From: Candidatus Poriferisocius sp.
GTDB lineage: Bacteria > Actinomycetota > Acidimicrobiia > Acidimicrobiales > Bin134
DNA length: 64,000 nt
Assembly (NCBI RefSeq): GCF_965219815.1
Contig: NZ_OZ244791.1
Location: 34,007-98,006, forward strand
Direction of reading: 5' to 3'
In this document: in pieces, positions 33,783-54,110 of the stretch
Layout of the letters: each line of letters begins with the position of its first letter
How positions within the stretch are numbered: the first letter of the stretch is position 1
Notes under the pieces: generated by a model
Told to the model about the DNA's origin: nothing
Database searches by the model: none
Seen by the model: the letters and a program-made list of their open reading frames with translations, nothing else
Position numbers and translations under genes: made by a program

Positions 33783-35132
33783 ATGGCTGAGCCCACCAGC
33801 ATCGACGACTTCCGCACTGCCTGTGAACAGGCGGAAGTCCACACTGTCGAGGTGGCGACACCCGACACCCTGGGCCACCTGCGGGGCAAGCGGGTTCCAG
33901 TGGAGCGCTATTTCCACCGGATCGCGGATCACGGCCTGCACATCGCCGACGCCATCTTCGTGTTCGACATGCAGAATGACCTGGCCGACAACCCCTACAT
34001 CAACATGGATGCCGGGTTTCTCGACTGCCATCTGGTGCCCGACCACTCCTCCGCCCGGGTTTTCAGCCACCGGCCCGGTTACGCCCTGGTGTTTGCCGAC
34101 ACCTTCGATCCCCATGACGACCCCCACCCCGTCGCCCCCCGCAATGTGCTGGCCAACCAGATCGAGCGGTGCCGCCGTGCCGGATTGGACCCGGTGGTGG
34201 CCACCGAGTTGGAGTTCTACCTGTGCAAGCCCGGCTGGGAACCGGTGCAAGACCACATTCAGTACTCCTCGCTTACCGATGCCATGGACGTCGAAGACTG
34301 CCTCCACGACATGCGAGCCGCTCTGTTGGGCGCCGGCCTCGAGGTGGAGTCGTCCAACCCTGAATACGGCCCGGGTCAGGTGGAGATCAACATCGAGTAC
34401 GCCGACGCCATGACCTGCGCCGACAACACCGTGCTGTTCAAGAGCATCGTCAAGCAGGTGGCCGTCCAGCATGGCCTGCGAGCCACCTTCATTCCCAAGC
34501 TCTGGACCGACCAGTCGGGCTCCGGCATGCACGTCCACACCAGCCTCGCTAATGCCGACGGAGGGGCAAACGCATTCGCTTCCTCCGATGGTCGCCCCAA
34601 TCAGATCATGGAGCACTGGGTGGCGGGGTTGATCGAGCACGCGCCAGCCCTCACTCTCTTGGGGGCGCCCAACGTGAACGGAGCCAAGCGCATCCGCCCG
34701 TATACGTTCGTGCCCACCCATATTCACTGGGGGCTCGACAACCGATCGGTGATGTGCCGTTGCATCTGCGAGGCCGGCTCGAGCGGTAACCGGGTGGAGT
34801 TCCGTTCGGCGGGGGCCGACGCCAATCCCCATGCGATCATCGCCGCCATCCTGGCCGCCGGGCTCGACGGCATCGAGCGCGAACTGGCCCTGCCCCCCAT
34901 GAGCGAGGGCGACATGTACGCCGACCCCGGCGATACCGAGCCCCTCCCCAGCGATCTGCCGGGGGGGATTGCCGCATTTCGAGGAAGCTCCCTCGCCGAA
35001 ATGCTGGGCGAGGAGTTCTCAACCACCTTCCTGCTGCTGGCCGAACACGAGCTGGCGCTGGCCACCGAGAACTCCCCCCACCCCGATGAGGTGAACGACT
35101 GGGAGCGGGCCCGGTACGCGGAGCACTGCTGA
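33783..35132 (+). CDS. glutamine-synthetase-family gamma-glutamyl ligase
   Basis: GS-like blocks ATELEFYL, GSGMHVHTS, EFRSAGADANPH. Second such gene in the window. Confidence 0.8.
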   Translation: MAEPTSIDDFRTACEQAEVHTVEVATPDTLGHLRGKRVPVERYFHRIADHGLHIADAIFVFDMQNDLADNPYINMDAGFLDCHLVPDHSSARVFSHRPGYALVFADTFDPHDDPHPVAPRNVLANQIERCRRAGLDPVVATELEFYLCKPGWEPVQDHIQYSSLTDAMDVEDCLHDMRAALLGAGLEVESSNPEYGPGQVEINIEYADAMTCADNTVLFKSIVKQVAVQHGLRATFIPKLWTDQSGSGMHVHTSLANADGGANAFASSDGRPNQIMEHWVAGLIEHAPALTLLGAPNVNGAKRIRPYTFVPTHIHWGLDNRSVMCRCICEAGSSGNRVEFRSAGADANPHAIIAAILAAGLDGIERELALPPMSEGDMYADPGDTEPLPSDLPGGIAAFRGSSLAEMLGEEFSTTFLLLAEHELALATENSPHPDEVNDWERARYAEHC

Positions 35133-38359: not shown

Positions 38360-38674
38360 TTGTCCAGTGTTGCTGGATGGAGGAGGATCACGACTATGGC
38401 GAGGCGAAGGCACACGCCCGAGCAGATTGTGCGCAAGCTGCGGGAGGCCGATCGGCTTTTGGGCGAGGGGGCGGAGATCGCGGATGTGGCGCGGCGTTTG
38501 GAGGTGTCGGAGGCGACGTTTCATCGGTGGCGCAATCAGTACGGGGGCCTCAAGGCCGACGACGTGAAGCGTCTCAAGGAGCTGGAGGCCGAGAACGCGC
38601 GGCTGAAGCGGATCGTGGCCGACAAGGAGCTGGAGATCGACGCTTTGCGGGAGATCAGCCGGGCAAAATGGTGA
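38360..38674 (+). CDS. IS3-family transposase OrfA (HTH + leucine zipper)
   Basis: RRRHTPEQIVRKLREAD...EATFHRWRNQYGGLKADDVKRLKELEAENARLKRIVADKELE is the canonical IS3/IS407-type OrfA. Confidence 0.9.
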   Translation: MSSVAGWRRITTMARRRHTPEQIVRKLREADRLLGEGAEIADVARRLEVSEATFHRWRNQYGGLKADDVKRLKELEAENARLKRIVADKELEIDALREISRAKW

Positions 38675-39528
38675 GCCCGCCGCAGCGGCGCAGAGCCGTC
38701 CGGCTGCTCTGCGAGCGGCTGGGGGTGTCGCAGCGGCGGGCGTGTGAGATCGTCGGGCAGCACCGCTCCACCCAGCGCTACGAGCCGGCCGAGCAGGACC
38801 CCGACCGGGACCTGCGGGCCGAGCTGCGCGACTTCGCCGAGAACCGCCCCCGGTGGGGGTATCGGCGGGCCCATGCGGTGCTGGTGCGCGACGGCTGGGC
38901 GGTGAACCGCAAGAAAGTCCAGCGCCTGTGGCGCGAGGAGGGCCTTCGGGTGCCGCCGAAGCGGCGCAAGCGACAGCGCACAGGAGACTCCGACGCCGAC
39001 GCCGGACTGCTCAAAGCCGAGCACCCCGACCACGTGTGGGCGCTGGACTACCAGTTCGACGCGACCGCGGCGGGCCGCAGGATCAAGATACTGCACGTTC
39101 TCGACGAGTTCACCCGAGAGTCGCTCGCCGACCTCGTGGACCACAGCATCGACGCGGACGCGACGGTGGCGTGCTTGGACAAGATCGCCTCGGCCAGGGG
39201 CCGGCACCCCGAGTTCATCCGGTGCGACAACGGCCCCGAGCTCACCGCCGCGGCCCTGCGCGATTGGTGCGAGTTCACCAGCACCAAGACCAGCTACATC
39301 GACCCCGGGTCTCCCTGGCAGAACCCCTGGGTCGAGTCATACGGCGCCAGAATGCGAGACGAACTCCTCGCCATCGAGCAGTTCGACAGCCTCCTCGAGG
39401 CCCAAGTACTTGTCGCCGACTGGCAAACCGACTACAACACCTACCGCCCCCACTCCGCGCTCGGCATGCTCACCCCAGCCGAATACGCAGACCAATGGGC
39501 AAAAAACAACCCGAAAAAACTCTCATAA
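38670..39528 (+). CDS. IS3-family transposase OrfB (integrase-core DDE domain)
   Basis: -1 frame relative to orfA. WALDYQFD...ILHVLDEFTRE...RCDNGPELT...PWQNPWVESYGARMRDELL...YNTYRPHSALG (D, D, E region). ATG 38670 overlaps the orfA stop (ATGGTGA). Confidence 0.85.
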
Positions 39529-39557
39529 CACCTGGACCAAAAAACGGGGTCCGGTCA

Positions 39558-40339
39558 TGGTCAAGGGTACCGACGTAGAACATTGACGGGTCGCCATAAT
39601 TGGACCTTGTCCTTGATCTCCACAAGAAGTCAAAGACTGTCGTAGGTTCACAGCTCTTATCGATTCGAACCCCCTCGCCTTTCGGAAGTTGCGACCTACC
39701 TAGATTCTGCCTCCGCTCTCTCTTAAGGTCCTCCAGCCTCCTACCTCTCGTTGTCTTCAAACACTTCGCAAGCAGGTCATATGGGTTGGGACTAGCAGCA
39801 AGGTTGCTCACCTCTTGCGGGGGCTGGTCGAATCCCTTGAAGCTCAGCGCCCCATGTCGTGTGCAAGTAAGCGACCAAGGCTGCGGAAAGATAGGAGAAC
39901 CCTTGACTGAAGCAGCAAGAGCCTTGAGTGTCTTGCGGTGACTCGTCGGAACTGCGTTATTTCTGACGAGTAGGAAACCTGCAGCAGCACGTGATGTCGC
40001 ATAGTACGCGTATACGTTGTTCCAAAGGTTCTGCAGCATCAGCCGAGGGTCGTCATCGTCCACGGCGTACAGGCCTAGCTCTTGAGTCCATGCACCGAGC
40101 AGGAGTTCCCTCAAGCCTTGTTCATCACCTTTGAATGGCTGTCCGGTTAGCTTCTTGACCGGCCGACGGGCCTTGAGGTCGTTGACTAGTGGCTGGTGGA
40201 AATCGATTCCGTATCGATCCTCAATCACTCCAGCGATGGCCCCCCAGTAGCCCATGTAGGTCGTGAAGGCCCTAGCCTCGGCCGTGTCAGCGTCTATGAG
40301 GCCATAGACGTCCAGAGTGTTGAAATCGACTGGGGACAT
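39558..40339 (-). pseudogene. 5' portion (about 260 codons) of an unknown gene split by the IS
   Basis: ORF 39470-40339 runs into the IS right end at 39557. Its last ~29 codons are IS-derived. GGAGAG RBS upstream of ATG 40339. Confidence 0.65.
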
Positions 40340-40621: not shown

Positions 40622-43594
40622 TCAACCCGCCGCTTGCGTCACTAGGTCGTCAGGGCTGTTTGCCACCTTGTAGTCAACCCCAATTGCTTTGAAGTGCTTT
40701 TCCGCGCAGTCGATCTTGATGTTCTCCACTTCTCGGCGTTCGACAGCGTCGAGGCTGCCTTTTGTCTCGCGCACGAGGTAGAGCTTGGCCTCGGACTCAA
40801 GCATGATCGCCCAGTCAGGGTTGTAGGGGCCGACTGGTGTGTCGACCGTGAACCACGAGGGGAGCTTGATGTAGAAGCGGACATCCCTGTTGTCGTCTAG
40901 CGCTTTGGCGAAATGGTGCTCGACCTCGGAATCGAACTCGACGTGGTCGTACGGGGTCTTGTCCTCGTTCTGCACTTTGTAGAGGTTGCTGGCGTACCGC
41001 TCGATCGCCTCTTCGGCCTCGGGCTCAAGGCGGCGCATCTCCCACATCGAGCCGGCGACCTCCTCGTACTCGATCCCGCTGAGCACCTGCGACCGGAGCA
41101 CCATGGTGATGGTTCTCGAAGCAAGCTGGAGGAACGCTTGAGGGTTGACGAGGAAGTCGTCCAGGCGTCCTGATTCGGTGAGAATCCTCACGATGGTCTT
41201 GCGGGTCAGGTCGGTCTCGTTCTGGAGGTCGGCGAGGATGTCCGGCAGGAAGGTCGGCCTTTCGGTGTCGAGTGCCTGTTTCGTCTGCACTTCTGTTGCC
41301 TGCAAACCCGAGAGCTTGTGCTTGATGTCGGCAACCCGGATCGTGATCTTCGGCACCTCGACCGCCGGGGCTTCCCGAAGGGTGACCACGGTGTCGGCCA
41401 CCAGTGCATCGGTGTCGAGCGCGACCCGGTACCGGGTGCGGACGCTGATCCGATTCCAGAGTTCTTGGAACTCGGGATCCAGTGTGACTTGCTTCCGGTA
41501 GCGGACCGTCTGGCGCTTCCGCGCATCGCGAATCTGGATCAGCTCAACGCGCTTCGAGATCACCCTGGTGATGTCCTCCCTTGAACCCTCATAACCTTCA
41601 GGAACCGGGAGAACAAACGACTCGTCAAGCGGGTTGAACGAAGGGAGTACCTGGCCTTCGCTCCCGATGATGCCCTCCGCTTCGAGGTGGTCCCACACGA
41701 TGCTTGATCCGTCGGCACCGAACTTCTCGCCCGGATTCACCGGATGGCCTGCGGGCCGGAGCAGACGGGTGAAAGCTGTTCGCTCGACGACGCCGAACTT
41801 CCGCCCGGTGTCCTCCTCGTATTCGGTCTGGAGGGCCCGGGCGAAGTCTTCGTAGGCTTCGTTCGCGATCACCGTCAGCCGGTTGACATTGCGGTCTCGC
41901 ACCCGCTCCCCGTCGTGGTTGACAGGCAGGCGAAGGCCGCGACCGATCTCTTGCCGCTTGCGGTCGGCCGATCTGGACTCGTTGAGTGTGCAGATCTGGA
42001 ACACGTTGGGGTTGTCCCAACCTTCCCGGAGGGCCGAGTGGCTGAAGATGAACCGAAGCGGCTCGTCGGGGCTGAGAAGTCGCTCCTTGTCCCGCATGAT
42101 CAGCTCGTAGGTGTCTTCGTCGGCCTTGGTCCTGCCGCTCGTATCCTTCAGCTTCTCGGGCTTGTTCCGGGTGGCCTTGTCCTTGCTGAAGTAGCCGCCA
42201 TGGACCTCGGTCGCTGCTGAGAGCTTGAGAGCGGCATACTTTGGCTTGGCGGCGAGTTCGGCGTAGACCTCCTCGAACCACTCAGCAAACTGGCCGGGCC
42301 GGGGCCCGTCGTCGGTGTACTGGCGGTAGTTGGCCACTTTGTCCAAAAAGATGAGCGACAGCACCTTGATGCGCTTGCCTTGCCGATGCAGGGAGAGCTC
42401 CCGATCGAGATGCTGTCTGACGGTCTCCCAGATTTGGGCCCGGCGGACTTCGTCGCCGAATCCTCCTTGTGGCTCGCCTTCGTAGACGATCTGGCCAGAG
42501 TTGAACTCAACATTCTCGTCGCCCGCACGAAAGGAGATGTTGGCGACAATGAATCCATTGGCGTATTCCTGCCGCTCATCAGACAGCGCATGGAGGTCGG
42601 CGCCCACTTTGACCCAGACCGATTTCTGCCCACCAGCCGAACCGGTGCCTACGTTGATCTGCACCTGAGCCCGCATCCTCTTCTGATCGGTCCTCACCAC
42701 CTTGACAAAGGCGGCGTTGAGGTTCTCCTCACCGACGACGCTGGCCACCTCGATGCTCTTCACCAGGCGCATCTCGTGGGCTTCGACCGGCCCGAGCCGG
42801 TAGATCGGGTTGTAGTCCTTCTTATGGGTTGCGGAGTACCGCAAGGTACACATCGGGTTGAGCCGCTCGATGGCCGCAGCCGCCTTTTCCGATTCCATGT
42901 TCTGCGGCTCATCGACCACCACGACCGGACGACAAGATTGGATGAACTCGATCGGGCGCCGCCCCGACATGGCATCGCTGGCCCGGTTGATCACGTTGGC
43001 GTTGCGGGAACCCTCCTCGCCATCTGCTGACACGTCCTTGCGGAAGGCATCGATGTTGAGGATGAGGATCTGCATGGTGTTGGAGGTGGCGAACTGCCGT
43101 ACCCGGCCGAGATTCTTCGAGTCGTAGACCTGCGCGTCGAACGGAATCGAATACAGAGACTGAAAGTGGTCTCGCATGAGTTTGATGCTGGCCAACACGC
43201 CCTCTCGGACAGCAACGGATGGGACAGCAATCACGAACTTGGTGAACCCGTAGTGCTTGTGCAGCTCAAACATGGTTCGCAAGTAGACATACGTCTTGCC
43301 GGTCCCCGTCTCCATCTCAATCGTGAAGTGCGGCCCTCCAAGCTCCGCGCTGACCGGAAGCTCGTTCTCCTCCTGGACCTGCTGGAGGTTAGAGAGCAGA
43401 TCGGACTCTAGGGAGTCGCCCGGGTCGGGGTTCCCGACTCCCAACTCGGTCAACGCGAGCTGGGCGCCCGTGGCGGTGGCAACGCTGAACTCACCGCTGA
43501 CCAACGGCATCCCGGAGAACAGGTCGACCGCAGCCTGCACCGCGTCGTGCTGGTACGCGAGATCGGGCTCGAACTTCAGCCTGACCGAGGACAA
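40622..43594 (-). CDS. res: Type III restriction endonuclease subunit (Res; SF2 helicase + C-terminal PD-(D/E)xK nuclease)
   Basis: Walker A ETGTGKTY. Motif II VVVDEPQNM. C-terminal PDWAIML...LYLVRETKGS nuclease motif. Starts 2 nt after mod. Confidence 0.9.
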   Translation of the reverse strand: MSSVRLKFEPDLAYQHDAVQAAVDLFSGMPLVSGEFSVATATGAQLALTELGVGNPDPGDSLESDLLSNLQQVQEENELPVSAELGGPHFTIEMETGTGKTYVYLRTMFELHKHYGFTKFVIAVPSVAVREGVLASIKLMRDHFQSLYSIPFDAQVYDSKNLGRVRQFATSNTMQILILNIDAFRKDVSADGEEGSRNANVINRASDAMSGRRPIEFIQSCRPVVVVDEPQNMESEKAAAAIERLNPMCTLRYSATHKKDYNPIYRLGPVEAHEMRLVKSIEVASVVGEENLNAAFVKVVRTDQKRMRAQVQINVGTGSAGGQKSVWVKVGADLHALSDERQEYANGFIVANISFRAGDENVEFNSGQIVYEGEPQGGFGDEVRRAQIWETVRQHLDRELSLHRQGKRIKVLSLIFLDKVANYRQYTDDGPRPGQFAEWFEEVYAELAAKPKYAALKLSAATEVHGGYFSKDKATRNKPEKLKDTSGRTKADEDTYELIMRDKERLLSPDEPLRFIFSHSALREGWDNPNVFQICTLNESRSADRKRQEIGRGLRLPVNHDGERVRDRNVNRLTVIANEAYEDFARALQTEYEEDTGRKFGVVERTAFTRLLRPAGHPVNPGEKFGADGSSIVWDHLEAEGIIGSEGQVLPSFNPLDESFVLPVPEGYEGSREDITRVISKRVELIQIRDARKRQTVRYRKQVTLDPEFQELWNRISVRTRYRVALDTDALVADTVVTLREAPAVEVPKITIRVADIKHKLSGLQATEVQTKQALDTERPTFLPDILADLQNETDLTRKTIVRILTESGRLDDFLVNPQAFLQLASRTITMVLRSQVLSGIEYEEVAGSMWEMRRLEPEAEEAIERYASNLYKVQNEDKTPYDHVEFDSEVEHHFAKALDDNRDVRFYIKLPSWFTVDTPVGPYNPDWAIMLESEAKLYLVRETKGSLDAVERREVENIKIDCAEKHFKAIGVDYKVANSPDDLVTQAAG

Positions 43595-43596
43595 GG

Positions 43597-45504
43597 TCAG
43601 ACAACCTTGAGGGTGATGTCGGCACCGCCGCTCTGGTTGGCCGATCGGATCGTTTGCATGGCGTTGACCTTCATCTCGTCGTCATCACCGAAGCACCGAT
43701 CCAAGACGAGGATGAGCGGCGGCCGTCTCGCGACAATCTCCTCAACGGCTTCGAGAGTGAGCTTCCCGTCTACGACGATGACGAGCTGGCCGTCAGCCAC
43801 GGAATGCAGCACCACGCCAGCGGCTTCGACCACATCGACCTGCTCGGTGAGCTCATACCCGGCCTTGAGCAACAGTTCGGCCACGATTTCTTCAGCCGTT
43901 GACGACTGGCTCACCCCGTCAGCGAACAGCGACAGCCTTGCTTCCAGTGCCTCACCGCCGTCAGCCTCGCCATCCCAAACGCGGAAGTTGGACTCAGCCA
44001 GCGCGAAGCTGCGGAAGCCCATTGGCCCTGGTGGTTCAAGTGTCCCATTGCCATCAGCAGTCAGCGCGGTTGCCGCACCCTTGAGCCGAGCACGCGTGAT
44101 GCCAGCGACGGTCTCGTAGTCGTCGTATCCCGTCGGCTCGGGAAGCTGCACCAGCACAAATCGCCGGTTGCCGCCGTCCTCGGCATTGAGCTTCCACACT
44201 GCCTCACCAGTGGCCCCTGACCCCGCGAAGAAGTCCAATACGATGTCTCCTGTCGCCGGGGTTGTTGCGAGTCGGAGCATTCGCTCAATCAGCCGCGTCG
44301 GCTTCGGCGTGTTGAAGACGGATTCCGAGGAAGCAAATTCGACTCGTTCGAGAAGTTCCTTCTTGGCCTCATCAGTGTGGCCAACTTCCTCATACTTCCA
44401 GAGCGTCTGCGGGACCCTCCCCTCTCGCACCTCACTGAGGAAGCGCTTGACCGCCGGTGTTCCCGAACCGTCAGCCCCGAACCAGATGCGGTTGTCCTCA
44501 ACCATCTCCTTGAACTTCTCCTCCGAGTAGCGCCAATAGGTGCCCGGAGGCGGACCAGGGATTGGACGGCCTGACGGCGTCTCGATCGGGTAGGTGCCCT
44601 TGCTGTAGTAATTGCGGGCAGATAGGTCACCGCTTTTCCACGGGCCGCGTGGATCATCGTCCGGATTCTGGTAGCGGGCCTCCATTTTTTCCGTTCTCGG
44701 CAACGGATTCGGTTCCCACTCCGCCGCGTTCCTCGCGTAGACGAGGACGTAGTCGTGATCCTCGCTGAAATGCCGTGCCGAGTTCTTGGGACCGTACACC
44801 TTCTGCCAGATGCAGCTGGCGACGAAGTTCTCAGGACCGAAGATCTCGTCCATCAGCAGGCGCAGGTTGTGTACCTCGTGGTCGTCGATGGTCATGAAGA
44901 TCGCACCATCCGGCCGCAGCAGGTTCCGCGCCAGCGCCAAGCGGGGAAACATCATCGAGAGCCAGTTCGAGTGGTAGCGCCCACTCGTCTCGGCATTGGC
45001 CGACAACCTCTTCCCCGACTCATCACTCTGACCGGTAAAGCGCAGATAGGTGGCAAGCCCCTCGCGGAAATTGTCCGGGTAGATGAACTCCTTGCCCGTG
45101 TTGTACGGCGGATCGATGTAGATCATCTTGACCTTGCCGTAATAGGCCCGCTGGAGCAGCTTGAGCACCTCCAGGCTGTCGCCCTCGACTACCACATCAC
45201 GGGCGACATCGGCGCGCAGCGACCGGTCGGCATCCGGACGGAGACTCCCGACCGAGGGCTCCTGCATCGCAGCCGCCGCAGCCGCCTTCCCCGGCCAAGA
45301 CAGCCCATACCGCTCCTGCTGAGGATCAACCGCCCTCTGCCCCATCGCCACCGCCAGGTCCTCAGGCACCAACTCCATCTCAGAGAACGCCTCAGGAACA
45401 AGATCCCGAAGAACTGCATACCGATCGTCCTTCGGAACCAAGCTCGTCAGATCGAACCTCTCAATCGCCCCGCCAGCAGCGTCCGCTGTCATCCCAACCC
45501 CCAT
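43597..45504 (-). CDS. mod: Type III R-M DNA methyltransferase subunit (Mod; beta-class N6-adenine/N4-cytosine MTase)
   Basis: Motif IV IYIDPPYNTG precedes motif I DFFAGSGATGEAV (beta-class order). Immediately upstream of res. Confidence 0.9.
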   Translation of the reverse strand: MGVGMTADAAGGAIERFDLTSLVPKDDRYAVLRDLVPEAFSEMELVPEDLAVAMGQRAVDPQQERYGLSWPGKAAAAAAMQEPSVGSLRPDADRSLRADVARDVVVEGDSLEVLKLLQRAYYGKVKMIYIDPPYNTGKEFIYPDNFREGLATYLRFTGQSDESGKRLSANAETSGRYHSNWLSMMFPRLALARNLLRPDGAIFMTIDDHEVHNLRLLMDEIFGPENFVASCIWQKVYGPKNSARHFSEDHDYVLVYARNAAEWEPNPLPRTEKMEARYQNPDDDPRGPWKSGDLSARNYYSKGTYPIETPSGRPIPGPPPGTYWRYSEEKFKEMVEDNRIWFGADGSGTPAVKRFLSEVREGRVPQTLWKYEEVGHTDEAKKELLERVEFASSESVFNTPKPTRLIERMLRLATTPATGDIVLDFFAGSGATGEAVWKLNAEDGGNRRFVLVQLPEPTGYDDYETVAGITRARLKGAATALTADGNGTLEPPGPMGFRSFALAESNFRVWDGEADGGEALEARLSLFADGVSQSSTAEEIVAELLLKAGYELTEQVDVVEAAGVVLHSVADGQLVIVVDGKLTLEAVEEIVARRPPLILVLDRCFGDDDEMKVNAMQTIRSANQSGGADITLKVV

Positions 45505-45783
45505 CGCACCATGAAGCAGTCCCCGGATTCCATCTGTCCCGCTAGTCGATCCCCAACATGGTCTATCAGTTCATCCCCCCAAGGCACCGCACCTCGTCTG
45601 GTCAAGTCTTGCTGAGATCCTTAGGCGATACACCAAACGGCCAGCAGACTACGTAGCGCAGCCGCTACGGAGAATGGTTCATGGGACAAAGTAGCAGGTC
45701 AGAGGCGCAATTTCGTGTCTAAGGGACCAAACTGTCACAACTGCCATCTACCATTGGGCGCCAATCCAAGAAACGAGGAAGAC

Positions 45784-46431
45784 ATGGCAGATGAGAAACT
45801 CCCGTACGTAACTAGCACTGGGTCGCTGACCAAGGCCCTTACGAAGATCCAATCCGCGGCAACTCCAGATAGGTTCACACAGGATTTTCTAGCGACGAAG
45901 TTAGGACTATCTGGTGGGGGCGCTAAACCAGTAATTCCCTTCTTGAAGCGCACCGGATTTCTTGCCTCCGATGGAACTCCGACCGAGACCTACAAACACT
46001 TCAGAAATCAGAAACAGCGAGGGGCAGCAGCAGCTGCAGCCCTCCGAACAGGCTACGCACCCCTATTTGAAGCGAATGAGTACGCCTACGAGCTCAACGA
46101 CGACGACCTCCGAGGGCTGATTGTGCAAATCACAGGAGCCGAAGAGGGCTCTCGAATGCTGACAGCGATTGTCGGCTCCTTCAAGGCCCTGCTCGAACTC
46201 GCTCAATTCGACGAGTCGGACGATCACGAGGCCGATGGTCCTGGCTCGGCGACCAGCGGAGACGACGGCGACGACCCCACATCCTTGCCGGACCAAGGTC
46301 AAGACGGGAAGGAGTCCTTGCTCGGAGACCTGAGCATCGGGTACACGATCAATCTCCACCTACCTGCCACCTCTGACATTGCTGTATTCAATGCCATCTT
46401 CAAGAGCCTCCGAGAGAACCTCCTTCGATAG
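45784..46431 (+). CDS. DUF5343-like protein (family recalled from memory)
   Basis: ATG 45784 with a GAGGAAG RBS; the ORF extends to GTG 45715. KLPYVTSTGSLTKALTKIQSAATPDRFTQDFLATKLG. Acidic low-complexity linker. Coupled to the next gene (2-nt gap). Confidence 0.6.
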   Translation: MADEKLPYVTSTGSLTKALTKIQSAATPDRFTQDFLATKLGLSGGGAKPVIPFLKRTGFLASDGTPTETYKHFRNQKQRGAAAAAALRTGYAPLFEANEYAYELNDDDLRGLIVQITGAEEGSRMLTAIVGSFKALLELAQFDESDDHEADGPGSATSGDDGDDPTSLPDQGQDGKESLLGDLSIGYTINLHLPATSDIAVFNAIFKSLRENLLR

Positions 46432-46433
46432 TC

Positions 46434-47021
46434 ATGGCAGCAGCTGAAGACAGACTGAAGCTATTTTCCCTCTCAAATCAGCTCGTCGAGCACGAACTCG
46501 ATCGGGTAGAGCGAGAGTTCGCTATCGATCTGCGGAGACAGCACAAGCAAGTGCTTGACTCTGACGAGGACTATTACCCACAGATCGAGCAGGAGTACCG
46601 CTCAGAGGCCGCGGCAATGGCACCCCGTTACGAAGTCTTCTACTCACTCGAGAAATCCATCCGGCGGCTAATTTCTGACCCGCTCGAAGCTGAAGAAGGC
46701 CCCAACTGGTGGACCAGCGGTCGCATTCCCTCCACATTGCAGCAAGAGGTCGCAGACAGACAGCAACGGGAAATGGACAGCGGCACGACGCCCCGGTCGT
46801 CCGACCCCATCGACTTCACAACCTTCGGTGAGCTTGGTGAGATAATCAAGAAGAACTGGGATGTCTTCGACTCCCTGTTCACGAGCGTGAGGGCAGTTGA
46901 GAAGGTCATGAGCAGTCTCAACACGCTCCGAGGCCCGATCGCTCACTGCTCCCTGCTAGCTGAAGACGAGGTGCTCCGGCTCCGCTTGGCGGTTCGTGAT
47001 TGGTTCCGTCTGATGGAGTAG
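46434..47021 (+). CDS. Swt1-like HEPN-domain protein (predicted RNase)
   Basis: C-terminal R-x4-H motif LNTLRGPIAHCS. Upstream DFTTFGELGEIIKKNWDVF block is typical of Swt1-type HEPN. Confidence 0.65.
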   Translation: MAAAEDRLKLFSLSNQLVEHELDRVEREFAIDLRRQHKQVLDSDEDYYPQIEQEYRSEAAAMAPRYEVFYSLEKSIRRLISDPLEAEEGPNWWTSGRIPSTLQQEVADRQQREMDSGTTPRSSDPIDFTTFGELGEIIKKNWDVFDSLFTSVRAVEKVMSSLNTLRGPIAHCSLLAEDEVLRLRLAVRDWFRLME

Positions 47022-47229
47022 CCGGCACGAGCTGCAAATCGTGGAGCGGCCACACGCCACCGATTACCAGCGACAATAGGGCCCGACCAATGGAAACGCA
47101 GCCAGGCACCCATCGGTCAAGTCAGCGGATAGTCGATTCTCGCCGATCAACCCTCACACTCAGTTAGGGCGAGCATCAGCTTGGGGGACCAGCACGAAGG
47201 CCAGTGCCCTGCATTCACAGCCATTTCGA

Positions 47230-47424
47230 CTAGCGCTTCTTGCGCTTGGCTCTCTCCTGGCTTTCTTTCACGTACTCGTCGAAGAGCTCTGCTGCAACAC
47301 GGCGACCAAAGGCCTTGGGGTCCACAGGCTGGGGATCCCAAGGCTGGGGAAACGGCAGGCGTGCCCTTTCGGAGCTACCCTCCGAGAGTTTCTGACGCAG
47401 TGCGTCCTCAGCGCTTCTCGTCAT
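47230..47424 (-). CDS. 64-aa protein with basic C-terminus (ERAKRKKR), unknown function
   Basis: ATG overlaps the stop of the upstream 438-aa gene (ATGA, 47421-47424). No recognisable motif. Confidence 0.5.
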   Translation of the reverse strand: MTRSAEDALRQKLSEGSSERARLPFPQPWDPQPVDPKAFGRRVAAELFDEYVKESQERAKRKKR

Positions 47425-48737
47425 GGCCTCACCCCCATTATGCCAGCGTTTCGGAGCCCTTGGTCGCGACCAAAGTAGCGCGGGTTGAGCTCGGGCGCGA
47501 AGTAGTGCTTTCGCCTAATCCACACTAGCCCGTCTCCCTTCGAGATCACGGCCACATCGACCGGGCCCCCAACCGTCTCAGCTTCCGGTGTAACCCGTCG
47601 CTTGAAGGAGGTGAGGTTTACTAGAGCCTCTGCCATCTCCGCGATTTCCTCCTTCGGGAGCAGCTCCACGATCGACATGATCGGGGCAGAGTTGTTTGCC
47701 TTCAGCAGCTCACGAAAGTGATCCTGGAAGCGATCGGCGATCACCGCTTTGGCCGCAGCCATCTCATTGAGTAGCTGGGAATGCGCAGCCGGAGAAAGAG
47801 CGCCTTTCACCCGTCCACTGAAGTGGTCGATCAACAGGCCAATCGTCTGGTCGACCAATTCGCTGAGTGCCAGTCGATAGTCAGGGTGAATGCCCTCCAT
47901 GAAGGTGGCCACCATGTCCTCCTGCGCGAAGGGGTAGATGCCGGCGGACTGGTCCTTTCCAATGCAGACGCCGCCGACCCTCCACGCTCGAACACGGCCA
48001 GCGACAATGCCGTCGACGAAGTACTGAGACATCGCAGGAAAGAGTTGGTCAGTACCAAACCCCGTTACTACGACTCCGCTACCCCAAGGCGACTGCTGGG
48101 CCGCCCTCAATGAGGCTCGGGCCATGACCCGAGCTCGTCGCTTGATCACCGAGTTCGTAGGTAACCCGTTGAGATATTCGTCTACAAACGCCGGCCAGTC
48201 TTTGATTGCAGCGCTTATCTCTCGTCCGACAATTGCCGTGCTGATGCCATCGATGAAGCCAATCTGCTGCAAATGGCTGATCCGAGCATTGACCCTGCTG
48301 AGAATCTCGCTCCTGATCTGAGCATTAGTGAGCGGAGTACCTGCTGATGCAGCAGCCAATGCAGTGCTCTCTACCGAAGTTCGCACCATGTCCAGCTCCC
48401 ACCACGCGGTCATAACCACACGCTCCCGTTGCTCTTGTCTGGACACATGTCGAACCAAGGAAGGCAAGTAGGCAACTAGCGCTTCTGCATATTCCTCAAC
48501 TGAGCCGTAGGAGGTTGAGGCAAGGTCACGGCGGTGCTCCTTTATGACGGTTTCCCAAGGGATCGACGCAAACGAACCCCCTCCATAAACCATTACTGCA
48601 ACCGGCTCAACGGTTGAGAGGGGAAATAGCTTGTTCGCGGTGTTGTAGATCTTGCGACCTGGCGCACCAACAGTGGCGGCGCTGTCGGCAGCGATAGCAA
48701 CGGCACCACGATTGAGGATCACCACTTCCGCTGTCAT
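47421..48737 (-). CDS. divergent proteasome-beta/HslV-like Ntn hydrolase with a large helical insertion
   Basis: M-T1AEVVILNRGAVAIAAD17SAAT...NK35LFPL...PVAVMVYGGGSF mirrors the proteasome beta T1/D17/K33-LF layout. C-terminal GGPVDVAVISKGDGLVWI resembles the terminal beta strands. Strong AGGAGGTGA RBS. Confidence 0.65.
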   Translation of the reverse strand: MTAEVVILNRGAVAIAADSAATVGAPGRKIYNTANKLFPLSTVEPVAVMVYGGGSFASIPWETVIKEHRRDLASTSYGSVEEYAEALVAYLPSLVRHVSRQEQRERVVMTAWWELDMVRTSVESTALAAASAGTPLTNAQIRSEILSRVNARISHLQQIGFIDGISTAIVGREISAAIKDWPAFVDEYLNGLPTNSVIKRRARVMARASLRAAQQSPWGSGVVVTGFGTDQLFPAMSQYFVDGIVAGRVRAWRVGGVCIGKDQSAGIYPFAQEDMVATFMEGIHPDYRLALSELVDQTIGLLIDHFSGRVKGALSPAAHSQLLNEMAAAKAVIADRFQDHFRELLKANNSAPIMSIVELLPKEEIAEMAEALVNLTSFKRRVTPEAETVGGPVDVAVISKGDGLVWIRRKHYFAPELNPRYFGRDQGLRNAGIMGVRP

Positions 48738-51765: not shown

Positions 51766-52002
51766 ATGACTGTGCAGATCACGATTCGAGGGGTACCTGA
51801 GGAAGTCCGCGATGAACTTTCAGCTCGGGCTGCGCTCAACCGGCAATCCATGCAGGAGTACTTGCGCGGCGAACTTGAGCGCATTGCGTCCCGGCCAACG
51901 CTGCGTTCTTGGCTTGACGAAGTCCAGCGCCGCAAGGCCGCAGCGGGAACCGGCGTCCCGACTTCGATGATCCTCGAAGACCGAGACGCCGATCGGAGGT
52001 GA
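51766..52002 (+). CDS. vapB: RHH/FitA-like antitoxin (VapB)
   Basis: MTVQITIRGVPEEVRDELSARAALNRQSMQEYLR. 4-nt overlap with the PIN gene. Confidence 0.8.
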   Translation: MTVQITIRGVPEEVRDELSARAALNRQSMQEYLRGELERIASRPTLRSWLDEVQRRKAAAGTGVPTSMILEDRDADRR

Positions 52003-52397
52003 GTGCCGTCGTCGACGCCTCCGTGCTGGTGGCCGTGCTCGTCGACTCTGAGCATGACGGCCCATGGGCAGAAGAGGCGATCTCAACCGGCCCTCTGGCC
52101 GCACCAGAACAGGCTCTGGTCGAAGCCACCAACACCCTTCGTCGACAGGAGCTAAGGGGCGTCCTCACACGACTGGAAGCGACAGCCGCCCACCGAGACC
52201 TGCTCCGCCTTGATATTGACCTCTACCCGTTTACGCCTTTCGCTGACCGCGTATGGGAACTCAGGGCCAACCTCACCAGCTACGACGCCTGGTACGTGGC
52301 GTTGGCCGAAGCGCTCGATTGGCCGCTGTTGACCCTCGACCGCCGGATCAGCCGAGCAACCGGACCCTTGTGCCAAGTGGTGACTCCCCAACCCTAA
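51999..52397 (+). CDS. vapC: PIN-domain toxin (VapC)
   Basis: SAVVDASVLVAVL start with conserved Asp. C-terminal LTLDRR pattern. Confidence 0.8.
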   Translation: MSAVVDASVLVAVLVDSEHDGPWAEEAISTGPLAAPEQALVEATNTLRRQELRGVLTRLEATAAHRDLLRLDIDLYPFTPFADRVWELRANLTSYDAWYVALAEALDWPLLTLDRRISRATGPLCQVVTPQP

Positions 52398-52405
52398 GCG
52401 GGACG

Positions 52406-53245
52406 CTACATCGAGCGGGAGGGGTCCATGGGGGCGGGGGCGGCTTTGGCCATGGAGTCTTGCTGGAAGGTGGCCACTAACTGGCCTTCGGCGGTGAACA
52501 CTTCGCCTTGGCCGTAGACCCGGCCGTTGGCCGCCTTGGTGGCCGACATCTGGATGAGCAGCCACTGGGATGCGTCCAGGCGATCCAGGAAGTGGAGGGT
52601 GTGGGCGATCACCCCGGTGGACAGGGTGCGGTGGGCGTCCTCGATTCGGATGGTTTCTCGATGGGGGCGCATGGCCAACCCGATGATGTTGCCGCAGGTG
52701 GCCCATCCGGCGATGCCCTGGTTGGCCGCCTGCGACTCCACCCCCGCCTCGTAGCGGTGCCAGGCCCGCTCAACCGGCACTCCGTCGATCTCCGGTTCGC
52801 CGGGCACCGGCCGCCACTCGGCGCCGGGGAAGATGAAGGCGAAGCCGGGATCCAAGCCATCGGGACCGGGCACATCGGGCATGGCCGGCTCGTGACGCAT
52901 CAGGTCGTCGTCCACTGTGCTCATCAAGATCAGCGCCCGGCTGAGCAGCTTGCCCCCCTGGGTGGCGGTGACCGCATCGCTGGCCCAGGTGCGCCCGGCC
53001 TGCATGGAATCGACGTCCACCTCTATGGGCAGGGTGTAGGTGCCGGCCCGGGCGAAGATGGCGTGCACGGAGCGGATGTCCTTGGCGCTGCCCGCTTCCC
53101 TATCCGACGCCATCATCATCTGGGCCATGAGCTGGCCACTGAACACCACATCGCGCCCCTCAGCCGACTCCGCCGGCTGGAATACGTGATAGCGATGCTC
53201 CCCGACTTCGGTGAGCTCCAAGATGTCAGGCAATTGGCCGCTCAT
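52406..53245 (-). CDS. acyl-CoA thioesterase II (TesB-like double hot-dog)
   Basis: 279 aa. GGQLMAQ-type region (FSGQLMAQMM) and a C-terminal GQGEVFTAEGQLVATFQQD block. Confidence 0.75.
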   Translation of the reverse strand: MSGQLPDILELTEVGEHRYHVFQPAESAEGRDVVFSGQLMAQMMMASDREAGSAKDIRSVHAIFARAGTYTLPIEVDVDSMQAGRTWASDAVTATQGGKLLSRALILMSTVDDDLMRHEPAMPDVPGPDGLDPGFAFIFPGAEWRPVPGEPEIDGVPVERAWHRYEAGVESQAANQGIAGWATCGNIIGLAMRPHRETIRIEDAHRTLSTGVIAHTLHFLDRLDASQWLLIQMSATKAANGRVYGQGEVFTAEGQLVATFQQDSMAKAAPAPMDPSRSM

Positions 53246-53258
53246 TAGAAGAGCGGGC

Positions 53259-54110
53259 TCATTCGTCCATCCCGAACATGGCCGGGTCGAAGTCCATCAT
53301 GCCGGCCATGACCTTCACGAAGGGGTCGTCCCAGGCGTCCACCAGAGAGGCGTTGGTGTGGCCCTGGTCCACCAGCAGGTTGATCCCGTTGATGCCGCTG
53401 GCGGCGTCGCTGCTCAAGAACAGCAGAGTGTCGCCCATCTGCTCGGGAACCAAGGTGGGCACATCGGCGGCCTCCCGATAGCTGGCCCCAAATCCGAGCC
53501 ATAGGTCGGCGTTGGCCCGGGCCAAGGGGGTGTCGGTGGGCCCGGGCATGATGGAGTTGATGCGGATGCCCCTTTGCAGGAAGGGGAACGCCTGGGCGGC
53601 CACATACCCGTTGATGGCCTGCTTGGAGAACATGTAGCTGTCGGTGCCCTCGTTCTCGTCGATCCACGCCGCGGCGGTGTCCCAGTCGGGGGTGGCCAGA
53701 AAGTCCTGCACCTGCTCCAGTTTGCTCATCCATCCCAGCCCGGCCGCCGAGGAGATGAAGCTCACCGAGCCGCCCCGGCCCAGCTTGCCGCCCTTGATCA
53801 GCGCTTCGATGAGATGGCGCTGCGATGTGAAGTTGATCAGCATGAGATTGCCGGTGCCGTCGGCCACCCCCGCGCAGGCCAACACGGTATGCACTGGGCC
53901 TTCGATGGCCTCGATGGCCGCGTCCACGCTGGCCTGGTCGCCCAGGTTGACGTTGATGTACTGCCCGCACTCGTAGGTCATGTCGGCGATGTCCAACACA
54001 ATGGTATGTCCACCCAGCGCGGCTGCCTTCTGAGCCGCGGCCGCTCCCATCCCGGTGGCGCCCCCCACCACCAGCACCCGCTTGCCCTCGTAGTTGACCA
54101 GATCAGCCAT
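53259..54110 (-). CDS. short-chain dehydrogenase/reductase (SDR)
   Basis: VVGGATGMGAAAA cofactor motif. YMFSK (YxxxK). Start chosen at ATG 54110. Confidence 0.8.
   Translation of the reverse strand: MADLVNYEGKRVLVVGGATGMGAAAAQKAAALGGHTIVLDIADMTYECGQYINVNLGDQASVDAAIEAIEGPVHTVLACAGVADGTGNLMLINFTSQRHLIEALIKGGKLGRGGSVSFISSAAGLGWMSKLEQVQDFLATPDWDTAAAWIDENEGTDSYMFSKQAINGYVAAQAFPFLQRGIRINSIMPGPTDTPLARANADLWLGFGASYREAADVPTLVPEQMGDTLLFLSSDAASGINGINLLVDQGHTNASLVDAWDDPFVKVMAGMMDFDPAMFGMDE

Follow-up and report, generated by a model that had tools for sequence, protein, structure and literature searches.

Two short adjacent genes were analysed in a 64,000-nt stretch of contig NZ_OZ244791.1 from Candidatus Poriferisocius sp. 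(Actinomycetota, assembly GCF_965219815.1, forward-strand positions 34,007 to 98,006), hereafter the window, in whose numbering all positions are given. Gene A encodes a DUF5343 protein and gene B a Swt1-type HEPN protein (Table 1). The original prediction, made from the letters alone, had described two plus-strand genes 2 nt apart and divergent from the methyltransferase gene of a Type III restriction-modification (R-M) system; the spacing was read directly at the junction (TAG-tc-ATG), and the pair indeed faced away from a mod-res operon across the intergenic spacer. The strings it had quoted were all found, KLPYVTSTGSLTKAL...DRFTQDFLATKLG in A, and FGELGEIIKKNWDVF (residues 131-145) and RGPIAH in B. 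A GAGGA Shine-Dalgarno sequence of gene A lay at 45775-45779. An alternative GTG start at 45715 would give a longer open reading frame (ORF), but the ATG at 45784 was preferred because an alignment of homologues and independent gene calls favoured it. The spacer presumably carries the promoter; no σ70-type promoter was found in it, and a repeat search confined to the window returned a weak, small 10-nt inverted repeat (45649-45672) upstream of gene A. mod and res are neighbours of the A-B module and lie outside it.

Table 1. Positions in the window of the A-B gene pair, its parts and its immediate neighbours.
Feature	Position	Strand	Details
Gene A, DUF5343 protein	45784..46431	+	215 aa; ATG 45784, TAG 46429-46431
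A N-domain, residues 1-142	45784..46209	+	Conserved, net-basic, helical
A linker, residues 143-184	46210..46335	+	Hypervariable, acidic, disordered
A C-terminal peptide, residues 185-215	46336..46428	+	Consensus LGYTINLxLPATSDxAVFNAIFKSLRExLL
Gene B, Swt1-type HEPN protein	46434..47021	+	195 aa; ATG 46434, TAG 47019-47021; predicted RNase effector
HEPN R-x4-H catalytic motif, R166-G-P-I-A-H171	46929..46946	+	From sequence; residues 166-171
Divergent intergenic region between mod (-) and gene A (+)	45505..45783		279-nt spacer; GAGGA inside
Type III R-M methyltransferase (mod)	43597..45504	-	Pfam N6_N4_Mtase 5.6e-37; PADLOC MTase_III 1.1e-176
Type III R-M restriction subunit (res)	40622..43594	-	Pfam ResIII + RE_endonuc; PADLOC REase_III 4.3e-289
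IS3-family element	38360-39528	+	HTH_Tnp_1 ORF + rve integrase-core ORF; left boundary of low-GC island

Both family assignments of the original prediction passed the curated Pfam thresholds when checked with profile hidden Markov models (HMMs). Gene A matched DUF5343 (PF17278) over residues 7-146 and profile positions 1-139 of 140 (E 1.5e-44; 152.1 bits, cut-off 27), and gene B matched HEPN_Swt1 (PF18731) over residues 68-193 (E 2.5e-10; 41.1 bits, cut-off 27.5). The proteins were 100% identical to NCBI entries named "DUF5343 domain-containing protein", from Candidatus Poriferisocius sp., and "Swt1 family HEPN domain-containing protein", respectively. The module itself is already known: PADLOC lists the pair as PDC-M34, multi-gene phage-defence candidate no. 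34, with full-length HMM matches of A to PDC-M34A (PDLC04589; E 9.2e-49, protein 6-213, profile 5-207 of 208) and of B to PDC-M34B (PDLC04592; E 2.2e-36, protein 6-192, profile 4-188 of 192). The A>>B order, adjacency and shared strand of PDC-M34 were found here and in 132 intact homologous pairs, and the locus is a member of this system with no architectural difference from it. In the work of Payne, Hughes, Fineran and Jackson, genes lying inside BREX, DISARM and Type I R-M loci were the source of 145 candidates for phage defence (10.1101/2024.01.29.577857), among which PDC-M34 is cassette CAS_00130 (FAM_01148>>FAM_01657), with 97 instances in RefSeq v209 (Payne et al., bioRxiv 10.1101/2024.01.29.577857, supplementary table 8). 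PDC-M34 is thus a guilt-by-embedding defence prediction in PADLOC-DB v2; its source cassettes were embedded in R-M, BREX or DISARM loci, whereas the pair described here adjoins an R-M operon instead. The systems assayed by Payne et al. were HEC-01 to HEC-09, without PDC-M34 (10.1101/2024.01.29.577857), and a later study that assayed several of the PDC candidates did not include it either (PMC12881386). A literature search returned no paper naming DUF5343 or PDC-M34 in its main text. As annotation the locus is therefore of ordinary value, since NCBI already names both genes and PADLOC already detects the pair; it adds an ordinary new member to a catalogued, mechanistically uncharacterised candidate system.

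HEPN RNases recur in abortive-infection, toxin-antitoxin (TA) and CRISPR ancillary systems. The R-x4-H motif (RGPIAH) that the original prediction had picked out in B was present and invariant: in an alignment of 133 homologues, from which all conservation figures for A and B were taken, R166, H171, N163, W92 and Q50 were identical in 133/133. B was strongly acidic (median net charge -9), and its AlphaFold2 (AF2) model was all-helical (predicted local distance difference test, pLDDT, 83), in line with the all-alpha HEPN fold. Foldseek placed it closest, among Protein Data Bank (PDB) structures, to the HEPN dimer of PbAbiF (8vz6_A, probability 0.99, E 0.095, template modelling score 0.43), and no match to Pfam Abi_2 was found at E <= 0.1. 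Abi2/Swt1 forms one HEPN branch in the classification of Anantharaman et al. 2013 (PMC3710099), and since its best fold match was AbiF, B fits that branch (PMC3710099). From its sequence, B is predicted to be a HEPN endoribonuclease effector.

Gene A, for which 3362 homologues were found, had the three-part build suggested for it from the sequence, a conserved N-domain, an acidic disordered linker and a short conserved C-terminus, on which the AF2 model (pLDDT 81 overall) and the alignment agreed. The N-domain had a mean pairwise identity of 0.53, a median net charge of +4 and near-invariant residues K55, R30 and R74. Most of it was modelled at pLDDT >90. Helices spanned 12-22, 33-38 and 50-57, strands lay close to 60 and 66, and further helices followed up to 137; the helix-helix-helix-hairpin stretch suggests a resemblance to a winged helix. 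Foldseek of A against PDB and BFVD returned nothing significant, its weak top matches being winged helix-turn-helix regulators of the MarR, GntR and Rrf2 families, and A carried no nucleotidyltransferase or other enzymatic signature in Pfam, NCBIfam or Foldseek PDB searches. In the linker, pLDDT fell below 50 at residues 147-184, pairwise identity was 0.10 and length varied from 29 to 50 aa; it was rich in E, D, G, A, P and S and net negative in 97% of the homologues. The C-terminal peptide was the most conserved part of the whole system (pairwise identity 0.78), with Y187, I189 and P194 in 133/133 and N190, L191, L193, T196, V201, A204, I205 and F206 in at least 131/133. A strand leading into an amphipathic helix is predicted for it, the helix falling at 199-213 in the AF2 model. 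One match in the representative library, outside the window, was a 457-aa fusion (P0272) of a DUF5343 N-domain (E 1e-39) with a Ser/Thr protein kinase (E 8e-33), the kinase domain standing where the linker and C-terminal peptide would be. Taken at first as a sign that the N-domain is a modular sensor, this protein was set aside once the 120 closest relatives had yielded no other case; it stands as a singleton that may reflect an uncommon fusion or a chimeric assembly.

When one genome from each of 185,579 species was pattern-scanned, 130 stretches with relatives of A came to light, at 43-66% identity and distributed over Actinomycetota, Patescibacteria, Planctomycetota, Chloroflexota, Proteobacteria, Acidobacteriota, Cyanobacteria and Spirochaetes; the best 80 were analysed. 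Where the sequence left room for it, in 76 genome loci, the gene directly after A was B in 72. We also assembled a B-anchored set of 90 loci (10 IMG/VR and 80 metagenomic), 69 of them with at least 700 nt upstream, and A was directly upstream of B in all 69. The co-occurrence of the two families, proposed as a check on the original prediction, thus proved to be a near-obligate A-then-B operon. Measured from the stop of A, the start of B lay at a median of -1 nt across the 132 intact pairs, mostly between -8 and +10, indicating translational coupling. Pairwise identity in the A N-domain correlated with that in B (r = 0.78; permutation maximum 0.14), which together with the coupling shows that A and B are inherited together and evolve in step. 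They also decay symmetrically. In the A-anchored loci B had been destroyed by an ISL3 element (L001), an IS21 insertion (L008), a deletion (L011), a frameshift (L035) or a nonsense codon (L062), and both genes were damaged in L060. The IS21-type element (IstB and an rve transposase) sat inside the 5' part of B (L008:10637-13366), and the ISL3 transposase replaced B beside a Bpu10I-type Type II R-M system (L001:5895-6845). Seen from A, this resembled the asymmetric decay expected of an antitoxin, B lost and A kept; the asymmetry vanished in B-anchored loci, and we therefore regard it as an ascertainment effect.

The pair is mobile and patchily distributed, known from sponge-symbiont Actinomycetota to Candidate Phyla Radiation (CPR) bacteria and enterobacteria. 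In the window it sat within a low-GC island of about 9.5 kb (GC 0.54-0.63 vs 0.64-0.70 in the flanks), of which the pair itself had the lowest GC (0.54-0.57) and the R-M genes 0.60-0.63. Ten IMG/VR viral contigs carried the pair among repressor, CII, excisionase, primase-helicase, head or tail genes. Close homologues were found on none of 72,556 PLSDB plasmids, and none of B on INPHARED phages. A census with Pfam and PADLOC of 259 flanking proteins from 73 loci included 10 integrases, a DRT reverse transcriptase, AbiE, ThsB, a CBASS cyclase with a 2TM effector, a dGTPase, BilA and TIR proteins. The patchy spread, the low-GC island and the integrase, prophage and defence neighbours make a role in genetic conflict plausible, in keeping with the original prediction of a candidate abortive-infection or toxin module. 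Two further parts of that prediction fared worse, as set out below: that the pair backs up the adjacent R-M system, and that A could be an antitoxin.

We lean towards reading A and B as a self-contained, horizontally mobile two-subunit conflict module, in which B would be the effector and A its obligate partner. Translational coupling would have the two proteins made in fixed proportion, allowing them to form a complex in which the C-terminal strand-helix peptide of A docks on B and may hold the RNase latent. The basic, winged-helix-like N-domain, tethered by the acidic flexible linker, may bind nucleic acid or another conserved ligand, giving A the part of a sensor or of a subunit that sets specificity. 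Phage infection or the loss of A, as the most plausible triggers, would then free B to cut cellular or phage RNA, so that growth stops with an abortive-infection-type or toxin-type outcome.

Several observations weigh against this proposal. Mutual information with average product correction over 133 paired sequences (effective number of sequences about 105) gave no enrichment of couplings between the C-terminal peptide and B, in a test that was underpowered for this sample. In 6 of the 69 B-anchored loci, all metagenomic, A was frameshifted or truncated next to an intact B with RGPIAHC, which argues against A as an indispensable inhibitor; some of these may be sequencing errors, at least one lying at a G8 homopolymer, and others look real. 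The winged-helix label is tentative, being drawn from weak Foldseek matches and the secondary-structure pattern. Housekeeping genes made up most neighbours in the census, where the enrichment of defence genes was modest and was seen without a formal background comparison, and the literature search found no published toxicity, RNase or phage-protection evidence for any PDC-M34 member. It is possible, if doubtful, that DUF5343 represents an undescribed mode of HEPN control, in which a nucleic-acid-sensing, winged-helix-like head is tethered by an acidic linker to a highly conserved C-terminal plug of 30 residues that docks on the HEPN subunit and gates it, and that PDC-M34 is a genuine prophage-carried anti-phage abortive-infection system spanning more than eight phyla, including CPR. 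If validated, PDC-M34 would be a further compact HEPN-based module for defence, about 1.2 kb long and with a protein partner of a new type. The three-part A protein, its invariant C-terminal peptide, R166 and H171 of B, the near-obligate translational coupling and the symmetric decay offer experimental handles, and the data caution against taking A for a plain antitoxin or the pair for a functional partner of R-M.

An alternative that we judge unlikely is a classic type II TA system, in which a labile, DNA-binding A would repress its own operon and neutralize a constitutively toxic B, giving post-segregational killing with no dedicated phage sensing. The gene pair has the form of such a system: a small bicistronic operon with the partner first, overlapping or nearly overlapping ORFs (median -1 nt), two small proteins, a mobile and patchy distribution, and, in A, the layout of many type II antitoxins, which join a folded N-domain through a disordered stretch to a short conserved C-terminus. 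To our knowledge, moreover, every known HEPN toxin is checked by a cognate inhibitor (RnlB, MntA or the AbiF non-coding RNA, ncRNA). An autorepressor should have an operator, and we sought one in 126 upstream regions by counting k-mers and scoring palindromes, with downstream and shuffled sequence as controls. No conserved k-mer was found across the 126 loci, and the palindrome score upstream (6.16) was close to that of the downstream control (6.03), so that the inverted repeat at 45649-45672 is not supported as an operator. The putative recognition helix of A was nearly invariant all the same. Decay told against this explanation too, with B destroyed in 6/76 A-anchored loci and A broken in 6/69 B-anchored loci, because an essential antitoxin should not vanish while its toxin survives, and no close homologue was found on the PLSDB plasmids. 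The role of antitoxin that the original prediction had offered for A is accordingly not secured, given these broken-A loci and the failure to find a conserved operator or palindrome excess.

The same broken-A loci suggest that B alone may be harmless, and so lend something to a different explanation, to which we give a decidedly small chance: that A is a positive RNA-targeting or adaptor subunit whose N-domain brings a conserved RNA (tRNA, rRNA or a phage transcript) to the HEPN site, B by itself being inert. Conservation of the N-domain across phyla, with its invariant K55, R30 and R74 and no conserved operator found, would suggest a ligand other than a promoter, and a basic N-domain beside an acidic B could supply the substrate-binding surface. 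We know of no precedent for an adaptor-type partner among HEPN systems, however, which counts against it; the A-first translational coupling is the typical inhibitor-first layout, and the Foldseek search gave no evidence of RNA binding. The two-subunit conflict module with A as the regulatory partner of B remains the reading that we prefer.

Very improbable, in our view, is that the pair is wired to the adjacent Type III R-M system in the manner of PrrC and EcoprrI and fires when a phage disables restriction. The arrangement invites the idea, with the pair and mod-res diverging from a common intergenic region, and the original prediction had the pair backing up this system and pointed to Swt1-like HEPN genes noted next to R-M operons; the Abi2/Swt1 clade is indeed described in R-M contexts by Anantharaman et al. 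2013 (PMC3710099), and the PDC-M34 cassette was first found embedded in other R-M or BREX loci (10.1101/2024.01.29.577857). As a property of the family, however, the association did not hold. A homologue of this res was found in 0/80 genome loci and distant similarity to mod in 3/80, and the census proposed for this point gave R-M families near only about 5/73 loci (about 7%), of mixed types (I, II, IIG and III). The one locus with the same mod-A-B arrangement was on a TARA marine scaffold (L171), where mod, A, B and a 64-aa ORF downstream shared 79-82% nucleotide identity with the window and the flanking thioesterase and short-chain dehydrogenase/reductase genes about 90% (window 44355-47476 and 52401-53832). 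Given this synteny and 79-90% identity, we regard L171 as the same inherited island in a close relative and not as an independent association; its adjacency is consistent with vertical inheritance of one island, which either diverged faster than the core flank or was exchanged. The lower GC of the pair than of the R-M genes also suggests separate acquisition. Finally, we give hardly any credence to the idea that the two genes do housekeeping work in RNA processing or regulation and play no part in genetic conflict, for although both proteins are well conserved and flanks elsewhere are mostly gyrB, PNPase, uvrA, aconitase and like genes, the pair is extremely sparse and taxonomically scattered (130 stretches among 185,579 species' genomes), lies in a low-GC island beside an insertion sequence (IS) element, is disrupted by IS elements in other members, is carried on prophage-like contigs and is frequently pseudogenized.

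Among known systems, AbiF/AbiD (Abi_2) came closest to B in structure (8vz6, a PbAbiF dimer bound to ncRNA) and belongs to the same Abi2/Swt1 HEPN branch. There, too, a HEPN toxin is restrained by a genetically linked partner; B differs in having no Abi_2 match, and the pair in having no RF03085, its partner being a 215-aa protein and not an RNA. An Rfam scan of 45300-47500 at E <= 1, which covered the AbiF ncRNA (RF03085), returned nothing apart from one spurious long non-coding RNA match, and so gave no sign of an AbiF-like ncRNA partner around the pair. HepT-MntA (type VII TA) and PDC-M05 share with the pair a two-gene operon with the partner first and an R-x4-H HEPN protein second, and a partner that may carry a helix-turn-helix-type domain. 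PDC-M05, whose partner combines an ArsR-like helix-turn-helix with a nucleotidyltransferase, was protective, showing that such candidate pairs can protect against phage (PMC12881386). HepT belongs to another HEPN subfamily than B, and because A has no nucleotidyltransferase domain, neutralization by AMPylation is inapplicable here.

RnlA-RnlB and LsoA-LsoB pair a HEPN-type toxin with a labile protein antitoxin and are activated on T4 infection. Like the arrangement proposed here, they are abortive-infection devices in which a small protein partner restrains a HEPN RNase. Their families are unrelated to A and B, however, and their larger toxin has several domains and is encoded ahead of its partner; the searches showed no match in sequence or fold. 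PrrC-EcoprrI is likewise a HEPN-related RNase beside an R-M system. PrrC carries an ABC-ATPase domain at its N-terminus, is encoded amid hsd genes and is hardly ever found away from R-M systems (10.1101/2024.01.29.577857), whereas the A-B pair is not embedded in this way and is seldom near R-M genes at all. Eukaryotic Swt1, which gives B's Pfam family its name, differs from B in combining a PIN domain with an inactive HEPN dyad, while the Swt1-like HEPN domains of bacteria have catalytic activity and are described from operons of the R-M type (PMC3710099). In Ava_2192 a Swt1-like HEPN domain is fused to a DUF499 AAA+ ATPase; B, in contrast, is a stand-alone protein with a DUF5343 partner. The part of the 2013 survey text that was searched describes no DUF5343 partner for Swt1-like HEPN proteins (PMC3710099).

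The IS3 element marks the left edge of the island. Directly downstream of res on the same strand lay an uncharacterized ORF of 289 aa (39470-40339, -), which may serve the R-M operon in an accessory role or be cargo of its own. A second contig with an identical gene A (L173, compared over L173:2082-4556) lacked the IS3 element, and there this ORF was 325 aa long; the IS3 element therefore appears to have inserted into or beside the 3' end of the ORF in the window. Convergent with gene B, and within the same low-GC island as the pair, lay an ORF of 438 aa (47421-48737, -) followed, with a 4-nt overlap, by one of 64 aa (47230-47424, -). In L171 the 64-aa ORF was kept and an AAA_14/DUF4143 ATPase stood in place of the 438-aa ORF. 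None of the three (438, 64 and 289 aa) had a Pfam, PADLOC or PDB match, and in NCBIfam the 438-aa ORF had a sub-threshold match only and the other two none. We considered them as extra components of the module and rejected them, as they were not conserved across 80 related loci. By eye only, and unverified, the N-terminus of the 438-aa protein (MTAEVVILNRGAVAIAADSAAT) resembles what we take to be that of N-terminal-nucleophile, proteasome-like hydrolases. About 5 kb downstream of the A-B pair, at 51766-52397 (+), the window also carried a standard type II TA pair, comprising a FitA-like ribbon-helix-helix antitoxin (78 aa, E 7e-10) and a PIN-domain toxin (132 aa, E 1e-12) that overlapped by 4 nt.

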